A model generated the notes under the pieces. It was not told where the DNA came from and did not search any database. It was given only the letters and a program-made list of their open reading frames with translations. Below are positions 14,237 to 15,739 of a stretch of DNA of 64,000 bases, in pieces. The stretch lies in NCBI RefSeq assembly GCF_056746865.1, contig NZ_CM163382.1, one strand, 5' to 3'. The translations under genes and the position numbers were made by a program. Each line of letters starts with the position of its first letter. Position 1 is the first letter of the stretch.

Positions 14237-14388
14237 ATAATATCAAAGTAGCAGTAAAACCTATAACGTAAATTCAAATTGTTAAATTAACTCCCTCCAG
14301 TACACAATACTTCACACGTTAGTTATGAGCGATTTCTGATAGTAGACTGGCCCCCTGAATCTCCAGACAACCAATATCACTTAAATAA

Positions 14389-14799
14389 GTGATAGTCTTA
14401 ATACTAGTTTTTAGACTAGTCATTGGAGAGCAGATGATTGATGTCTTAGGACCGGAGAAACGCAGACGGCGTACTACACAGGAAAAGATCGCTATTGTTC
14501 AGCAGAGTTTTGAACCGGGAATGACGGTCTCCCTTGTTGCCCGGCAACACGGTGTGGCAGCCAGCCAGTTATTTCTCTGGCGCAAGCAATACCAGGAGGG
14601 AAGTCTTACTGCTGTGGCCGCAGGAGAGCAGGTCGTTCCTGCCTCTGAACTTGCTGCTGCCATGAAGCAGATTAAAGAACTCCAGCGCCTGCTCGGCAAA
14701 AAAACGATGGAAAATGAACTCCTTAAAGAAGCCGTTGAATACGGGCGTGCAAAAAAGTGGATAGCGCACGCGCCCTTATTGCCCGGGGATGGGGAGTAA
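14389..14799 (+). CDS. insC: IS2 transposase OrfA (InsC)
   Basis: ORF track 136 aa [26 protein letters not shown]...; A6G slippery heptamer at 14751-14757. Confidence 0.95.
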
Positions 14800-15662
14800 G
14801 CTTAGTCAGCCGTTGTCTCCGGGTGTCGCGTGCGCAGTTGCACGTCATTCTCAGACGAACCGATGACTGGAAAGATGGTCGCCGCAGCCGTCACTCAGAT
14901 GATACGGATGTGCTTCTCCGTATACACCATGTTATCGGAGAGCTGCCCACGTATGGTTATCGTCGGGTATGGGCGCTGCTTCGCAGACAGGCCGAACTTG
15001 ATGGTATGCCTGCGATCAATGCCAAACGTGTTTACCGGATCATGCGCCAGAATGCGCTGTTGCTTGAGCGAAAAACCGCTGTACCGCCATCGAAACGGGC
15101 ACATACTGGCAAAGTGGCCGTGAAAGAAAGCAATCAACGATGGTGCTCTGACGGGTTCGAGTTCCGCTGTGATAACGGAGAAAAACTGCGAGTCACGTTC
15201 GCGCTGGACTGCTGTGACCGTGAGGCACTGCACTGGGCAGTCACTACGGGCGGCTTCGACAGTGAAACAGTACAGGACGTAATGCTGGGAGCGGTGGAAC
15301 GCCGCTTCGGCAACGAGCTTCCGGCGTCTCCAGTAGAGTGGCTGACGGATAATGGTTCATGCTACCGGGCTAATGAAACACGGCAGTTTGCCCGGATGTT
15401 GGGGCTTGAACCGAAGAACACGGCGGTGCGGAGTCCGGAGAGTAACGGCATAGCAGAGAGCTTCGTGAAAACGATAAAGCGTGACTACATCAGTATCATG
15501 CCTAAACCAGACGGGTTAACGGCAGCAAAGAACCTTGCAGAGGCGTTCGAGCATTATAACGAATGGCATCCGCATAGTGCACTGGGTTATCGCTCGCCAC
15601 GGGAATATCTACGGCAGCGGGCCAGTAATGGGTTAAGTGATAACAGGTGTCTGGAAATATAG
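14757..15662 (+). CDS. insD: IS2 transposase OrfB (InsD), normally made as OrfAB fusion by -1 frameshift
   Basis: ORF track 301 aa with integrase-core DDE region. Confidence 0.95.
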
Positions 15663-15739
15663 GGGCAAATCCAGATAGTGCCTGGTTTAATCAGGGCTTT
15701 ATTATCTGCGACGTTTATTTTTATTTAAGAGAGATCGCG

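Follow-up and report, generated by a model that had tools for sequence, protein, structure and literature searches.

The spacer between yahK and yahL in the genome studied here contains an insertion sequence (IS) whose right end faces yahL, and the question raised by this locus is whether its arrival has altered the expression or the protein product of that gene. An initial annotation had described a complete 1331-bp IS2 with a GATAG target duplication, placed between the yahK hairpin and yahL, and had proposed that it probably displaces any native yahL promoter and brings an in-frame start codon with it. The reading that we consider probable, from the data presented here, is that an active isoform of IS2 has recently entered the AT-rich spacer of yahK and yahL, as an event private to this strain, and that its insertion there is probably neutral with regard to selection. 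Coordinates refer to the window, that is, the whole stretch of 64,000 nucleotides that was analysed, and are collected in Table 1.

Table 1. Features of the yahK-yahL region and of the second copy of the element in the window
Feature	Position	Strand	Basis or remark
yahK, NADPH-dependent aldehyde reductase, upstream neighbour, 349 aa	13112-14161	+	open reading frame; homologue annotated yahK in RefSeq (strain 7/2, others)
Strong hairpin 3' of yahK, no U-tract behind it	~14191-14243	+	-22.9 kcal/mol, z = -7.6, 0/200 shuffles as good
GATAG, left copy of the target-site duplication, 5 bp	14338-14342		sequence; present only once in the IS-free allele
Complete IS2-family element, 1331 bp	14343-15673	+	IS2 isoform
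IRL, 42 bp	14343-14384	+	sequence; IR length from PMC3299598
PIRL, weak extended -10 promoter of IS2, TGaTAGTCT	14390-14398	+	base pairs 48-51 (TGAT) are the PIRL start in PMC3299598
orfA, InsC-like, 121 aa	14434-14799	+	Pfam PF01527 HTH_Tnp_1, E = 1.8e-19
A6G slippery site AAAAAAG	14751-14757	+	-1 frameshift giving the OrfAB transposase; A6G window in PMC3299598
orfB, InsD-like, 301 aa, DDE/integrase core	14757-15662	+	PF00665 rve, E = 8.5e-20; PF13683
IRR, 41 bp, toward yahL	15633-15673	+	sequence; IR length from PMC3299598
GTG, in frame with yahL, mechanical start of the listed 302-aa ORF	15647-15649	+	sequence
TGGAAA, outward -35 hexamer of IS2	15652-15657	+	identity deduced from the 17-bp spacing of Pjunc, given a junction spacer of 1 bp
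GATAG, right copy of the target-site duplication, 5 bp	15674-15678		sequence
GATAGT, hexamer resembling a -10, at 16 bp from TGGAAA; candidate hybrid promoter	15674-15679	+	PWM 5.43
Weak native hairpin, CCTGGTTTAATCAGG then GCTTTATTAT	15681-15695	+	terminator-like, at chance frequency; fold z = -1.6
TATTAT, best retained native -10-like hexamer	15700-15705	+	35 nt before the ATG; PWM
AAGAGAG, Shine-Dalgarno-like	15727-15733	+	6 nt before the yahL ATG
yahL, 271 aa, uncharacterised, intact	15740-16555	+	same protein sequence as in strain 7/2 (100%); RefSeq annotation
Second IS2-family copy	58588-59918	-	100% identical to the yahL copy, 0 differences

As shown in Table 1, the description of a complete 1331-bp element bounded by GATAG repeats, and lying between the hairpin behind yahK and the ATG of yahL, was borne out. 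The distance of 62 bp that had been given to the yahL start is obtained by subtracting the coordinate of the last base of the right GATAG from that of the ATG; the ATG lies 66 nt past the end of the IS itself. The element begins with TAGACTGGCCCCCTGAATCTCCAGACA and ends with TGTCTGGAAATATAGGGGCAAATCCA, sequences that correspond to the imperfect repeats at the termini of IS2 (left TAGACTGGCCCC..., right ...GGGGCAAATCCA, with tips TA...CA), and shows the traits of the IS3 family and of IS2 in its size and inverted repeats, in the overlapping orfA and orfB with an A6G site, in the HTH and DDE domains and in the 5-bp duplication. A search of the region against Rfam (E <= 1) gave zero structured-RNA matches.

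We compared the element with IS2 of E. coli K-12 (IS3 family; insC/insD). Both share the length of 1331 bp, inverted repeats of 42 and 41 bp with TA...CA tips, an identical OrfA, the PIRL promoter, an orfA/orfB overlap with the A6G -1 frameshift and a 5-bp duplication. By contrast, the yahL copy carries 56 nucleotide differences, an OrfB protein that is 96.7% identical, and GTG in place of ATG inside IRR. The resulting nucleotide identity of 95.8%, measured against the RefSeq-annotated K-12-type IS2 of strain A134_1EC, lies just above the conventional line of around 95% for copies of the same IS. RefSeq labels the isoform merely as "IS3 family transposase", for example in strain CS5L.

The comparison with an IS-free yahK-yahL spacer, which the initial annotation had suggested as a check, was made with strain 7/2 (NZ_CP023820), whose sequence is 99.2% identical over the 6 kb surrounding the insertion. 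After removal of the IS and one GATAG, a spacer of 242 bp was obtained that matches that of strain 7/2 at 242 of 242 positions. This exact empty site supports that the insertion is genuine and precise, the product of a clean transposition and no artefact of assembly.

Regarding its age, the window contains a second copy of the same isoform, 43 kb from the first, which disrupts tauD a short distance upstream of hemB and has CGCGA as its target duplication. Among 5,426 complete genomes of E. coli in RefSeq, no match was found to either junction of the insertion at yahL or to the tauD junction at the IS right end, and the yahL-side junction was also absent from a metagenome contig collection. Two copies that are both identical and private to the strain support recent transposition by an active element. 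Strain YPE10 had been considered as a carrier of an insertion at the same site in reverse orientation, an interpretation that was rejected when mapping placed its insertion 12 bp upstream, at TGAGC.

The behaviour of IS2-family elements at this locus in other strains was also studied. For this, the whole insertion was queried in both orientations against complete E. coli genomes, and 18 + 11 genomes with an IS2-family element near yahK or yahL were found; 26 of those loci were fetched, and each insertion was mapped onto the IS-free reference. A total of 26 independent events, that of the window included, was identified at the yahK-yahL-yahM island, all of them within 1.22 kb that begin at the base of the hairpin behind yahK and end shortly before yahM, where the GC content is 0.32-0.43 vs 0.52 for the whole window. 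Fifteen events fell inside the yahL reading frame and none inside the adjacent yahK, which has a normal GC content. Duplications of 5 bp were detected at nearly all the other mapped insertions, and no target consensus was apparent among the 26 duplications, in agreement with the lack of such a consensus published for IS2 (PMC5009759). Two targets, ATCTG and TTAGG, were each hit twice in opposite orientations (2 observed vs 0.27 expected, p = 0.03), and the number of insertion pairs at 5 bp or less from each other was not significant.

To put the frequency of these events in context, yaiS-tauA, a locus of the window with a similarly high AT content (GC 0.39), was used as a control with the same kind of query, and 3 + 6 = 9 genomes were found vs 29 at yahL (p = 0.0017, with this one control). 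A uniform distribution of the approximately 15,800 chromosomal IS2-family right ends over genomes of around 5 Mb would place about 4 copies in 1.22 kb. The excess at yahL is thus estimated at about 7-fold relative to uniform insertion and 3-fold relative to the control; both figures are rough, because IS copies in the 5,426 genomes are phylogenetically non-independent and the control locus is a single one. The pattern fits the published absence of a target consensus in IS2, the preference of IS2 for curved DNA (PMC3299598) and the capture of transposons by AT-rich H-NS-bound DNA, the last of these so far shown for IS5-family elements only (PMC11335895).

Overall, the right end points toward yahL or yahM in 15 events and in the opposite direction in 11 (binomial p = 0.56). 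Within the spacer there are three events with the right end toward yahL (A134_1EC/EC06 at AATAT, the window at GATAG and CS5L at ATCTG) and three in the opposite orientation (EC21GDE043, YPE10 and PSS-08-1). With 15:11 overall and 3:3 in the spacer, an orientation bias due to selection for yahL activation was rejected, and the equal numbers in the spacer mean that there is no population signal for activation driven by the right end. Balanced orientations, and the many insertions that destroy yahL, speak for an island that is a tolerated or attractive landing zone, and do not suggest selection for switching on yahL.

Turning to the gene itself, yahL is restricted to E. coli and Shigella (PMC11057252), and a Pfam search with YahL gave no family. 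Its coding sequence, ribosome-binding site and ATG were left untouched by the insertion, as were 61 bp of proximal upstream DNA that include the TATTAT hexamer, while the distal 181 bp of the 242-bp spacer, with three promoter-like sites and the yahK hairpin, were moved 1.3 kb off. The displacement described in the initial annotation is correct as regards this distal part of the spacer; the proximal TATTAT was kept. This hexamer belongs to GTGCCT-N16-TATTAT, which is also present in the IS-free allele and scores 6.68 (top 0.25% of window positions) with a simple sigma-70 weight matrix; here and below the scores are approximate.

It could be argued that the insertion cut yahL off from its real promoter, or from activator sites in the distal spacer, in such a way that expression was lowered or abolished. 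Of the five promoter-like sites that score best in the IS-free spacer, three are located on the upstream side of the insertion point, a CRP-like site adjoining this point (7/10 match) ends inside the target duplication, and yahL is a predicted CRP target by genomic SELEX (PMC3105977). However, all of these displaced sites are at chance level, around 0.9 CRP-like sites of 7/10 quality being expected by chance in the spacer, and for this reason a CRP site split by the insertion was rejected. The good proximal -10 remained in place. In the literature searched, yahL appeared only in SELEX peak lists, for CRP and for minor sigma factors, and no mapped promoter or transcription start was found. We therefore consider a loss of expression by this route possible but unlikely.

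The opposite effect, in which the IS2 right end would activate yahL through a hybrid promoter or through read-through from PIRL, orfAB or yahK across the sense-oriented element, has to be considered in the light of the known promoter activity of IS2. The right end (IRR) carries an outward -35 that forms hybrid promoters (PMC3219604), and in the excised minicircle this -35 and a -10 located at the IRL tip, TAGACT, together make up the junction promoter Pjunc (PMC3299598, PMC3219604); the identities of the hexamers TGGAAA and TAGACT were deduced from the geometry together with these two papers. The statement that IS2 ends contribute promoter elements is in this respect well documented (PMC3219604; Jaurin & Normark 1983, as summarised in PMC9330008), and hybrid promoters of IS2 are known at ampC, acrEF and neoR (PMC9330008). 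At yahL, the hexamer GATAGT begins 16 bp downstream of TGGAAA, matches the -10 consensus at four of six positions and keeps the critical A2 and T6. The transposase frame is directed toward yahL, and no convincing terminator was found between the IS end and yahL by scanning and folding; the native hairpin in this interval was rejected as an intrinsic terminator, being at chance level. Without a real terminator on the way to yahL, weak read-through from PIRL/orfAB or from yahK is conceivable.

Several observations oppose such an activation. The score of TGGAAA-N16-GATAGT is only in the top 0.54% of window positions, with around 690 equal or better sites, that is, at chance level, and a stricter consensus promoter scan left this site below its threshold and did not report it. 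Pjunc, which uses the same weak -35, tolerates a spacer of 17 bp only (PMC3299598), and the last 150 bp of IS2 alone gave no detectable promoter activity in a reporter (PMC12095673). Furthermore, the two other spacer insertions in the same orientation have no usable -10 at 16-18 bp, and neither the balanced orientations in the spacer nor the 15 events within yahL speak for selected activation. Activation of yahL by the right end seems to us, accordingly, a doubtful reading.

As in the IS2 insertions at ampC (Jaurin & Normark 1983), acrEF and neoR, an IS2 right end lies beside a gene, where its outward -35 may pair with a -10 in the flanking DNA; but at ampC the spacing became 17 bp, which is optimal, and expression was measured to change 20-fold (PMC9330008), whereas at yahL the spacing is 16 bp, the -10 matches at 4/6 positions, no selectable phenotype is associated, and the promoter is a candidate predicted from sequence. 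With Pjunc the locus shares the -35 TGGAAA, and the yahL flank GATAGT resembles the IRL tip. Pjunc differs in having a 17-bp spacer and in being abolished by 2-bp junction spacers (PMC3299598), and it also reaches a higher score, 8.42 (TGGAAA-N17-TAGACT, top 0.06% of window positions) vs 5.43.

The proposal of a new start codon concerns the protein rather than its expression. An ATG had been reported at 15647, inside the IS2 right end, and in this copy the codon is GTG. The K-12-type IS2 of strain A134_1EC has ATG at the homologous position, which probably explains the reported ATG; the change of the canonical ATG to GTG is one of the isoform differences and lies inside IRR. The frame from 15647 to yahL is free of stops, as had been stated, with an in-frame TAA located at 15641-15643; this openness is uninformative, since a stop codon is also missing from 38% of 93-nt frames drawn at random in the window.

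Translation from 15647, which would add 31 N-terminal residues to YahL, finds its sole support in this open frame to 15740 and is very improbable: the codon is not ATG, a Shine-Dalgarno sequence was searched for 5-10 nt before it and was absent, the native ATG retains its own AAGAGAG, and the ORF listing takes simply the first ATG, GTG or TTG past a stop, here the TAA mentioned above. The idea of an in-frame start creating a longer YahL was rejected on the grounds of the G at 15647, the missing ribosome-binding site and the commonness of open frames; the extended protein is almost certainly not made, and no protein fusion is made by the insertion.

Equally remote is the explanation that a repeated element was mis-assembled into the yahK-yahL spacer, for which it may be said that the two copies in the window are identical, a situation where assemblers may misplace repeats, and that the junction occurs in no other genome, and against which stand the perfect 5-bp duplication at the yahL copy, the reconstructed empty site and the distinct duplication carried by the second copy.

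We return therefore to a recent, private and probably neutral insertion as the preferred explanation. The element would have come in through the minicircle (copy-out/paste-in) route that IS2 is known to follow, and would have landed in a low-GC island, probably curved or of the H-NS type, that may tolerate or attract IS2-family elements; the IS2 right end with its outward -35 would then be the new upstream neighbour of yahL. The anatomy of the insertion and its population pattern are direct observations, and what we infer are the consequences for expression, including that of little effect. On balance we favour the view that yahL transcription is unchanged or reduced; we give only limited credence to a modest increase, whether due to orfAB or yahK transcripts reading through or to a weak TGGAAA-N16-GATAGT hybrid promoter.

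Other AT-rich loci provide a further comparison. The bgl operon is silenced by H-NS, and insertion of IS1 or IS5 activates it, an activation that has been selected and demonstrated. At both loci a poorly expressed gene has an IS in the AT-rich DNA ahead of it, in either orientation; the yahL insertions, by contrast, mostly destroy the gene, and a role of H-NS at yahL is putative. Here, too, insertions that show no preferred orientation could be under selection if, like IS1 and IS5 at bgl, they relieved silencing by H-NS. The capture of transposons by H-NS (Cooper et al. 2024, PMC11335895) resembles the situation at yahL in the clustering of IS in an AT-rich island with none in the GC-normal neighbour. 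It differs in having been shown for the IS5 family, whereas IS2 is an IS3-family element of the copy-out/paste-in type, and the occupancy of yahL by H-NS is suggested by base composition only.

On its own, the insertion is of little weight, being one more private insertion of a textbook IS, placed beside the uncharacterised yahL, and no phenotype is attributed to it. The IS2 isoform of this strain appears to be currently active, because two identical copies are present and one of them knocks out tauD. The recurrent targeting of the yahL island by IS2 is the sole mildly new observation, and it has a practical side: PMC11057252 proposes yahL as a qPCR marker specific for E. coli, but its locus is a recurrent IS target, around 0.5% of complete genomes having an IS2-family element at the locus and two having it inside the 112-bp amplicon. 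The clustering of IS2 in an AT-rich island also constitutes a cheap natural data set for examining a possible "transposon capture" of IS3-family elements by H-NS. A more ambitious interpretation, that the yahK-yahL-yahM island is a preferred landing zone for IS2-family elements, and that in this strain the Pjunc-like TGGAAA-N16-GATAGT possibly switches on the orphan yahL, is one that we put forward as speculative and rather improbable. If the island were indeed such a preferred landing zone, the transposons captured by H-NS or by curved DNA would include, in addition to the IS5 family, a copy-out/paste-in element of the IS3 family.

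The AT-rich yahK-yahL-yahM island is a recurrent target of IS2-family elements. Across the window and loci L001-L027 (yahK/yahL regions of other E. coli strains), 26 independent insertions were found in both orientations, 15 of them within yahL. The island corresponds to coordinates 2902-4121 of locus L003, equivalent to approximately 14239-14342 plus 15679-16800 of the window. With the same type of query, IS2 was found in 29 genomes at the yahL island versus 9 at the AT-rich control locus, yaiS-tauA.

Two target sites each received two insertions of opposite orientation, the IS2 isoforms being different and the host strains unrelated: ATCTG, located 31 bp before the yahL ATG, in CS5L (L002) and PSS-08-1 (L005), and TTAGG, near the 3' end of yahL, in PSS-16 (L009) and 5283 (L022). 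Deletions adjoining IS2 were detected in PSS-08-1, where the region from inside yahJ through yahK is gone, and in EC21GDE043 (L027), which has lost yahL; both are consistent with IS-mediated adjacent deletion. The yahK-yahL locus is also crowded by other insertion sequences. In PI12 (L020), IS1 occupies the spacer and ISKpn26 lies at the 3' end of yahL; EPSSH018 (L014) has a truncated yahL followed by ISApl1, and p10A (L017) has IS1 upstream of yahK.

The features located in the window are listed in the table.

Features of the window related to IS2 and yahL
Feature	Window position	Strand	Remarks
Hairpin 3' of yahK	14191-14243		-22.9 kcal/mol, unusually stable
CRP-like sequence TATGAGCGATTTCTGA	14324-14339		7/10 consensus positions; overlaps left target duplication (GATAG) of the yahL IS2
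yahL qPCR amplicon (PMC11057252)	16328-16439		yahL nt 589-700; mapped onto the window
Target duplication CGCGA	58583-58587 and 59919-59923		direct repeats flanking the second IS2
Second IS2 copy	58588-59918	-	same isoform as the yahL copy, 100% identical

The second IS2 breaks tauD (taurine dioxygenase) near codon 209, with hemB immediately downstream of the site. The tauD junction that was searched, with the IS right end, was found in none of 5,426 complete genomes.

Upstream of yahL, the yahK hairpin has no U-tract behind it on either strand and is therefore no canonical intrinsic terminator; its exact 3' foot is the IS2 insertion point in A134_1EC. yahL is among the SELEX-predicted CRP targets (PMC3105977), and a CRP-like match of the quality found here is expected by chance. 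The region 5' of yahK shows two architectures among strains (window 12039-13025 versus L001, L004 and others), with ABC-transporter permease genes in the window and strain 7/2, and yahJ plus a small pseudogene fragment in K-12-like strains.

The forward primer of the published yahL qPCR amplicon has two mismatches to the yahL allele of the window strain, and in two complete genomes (TK3896 and MB20) IS2 is inserted inside the amplicon.
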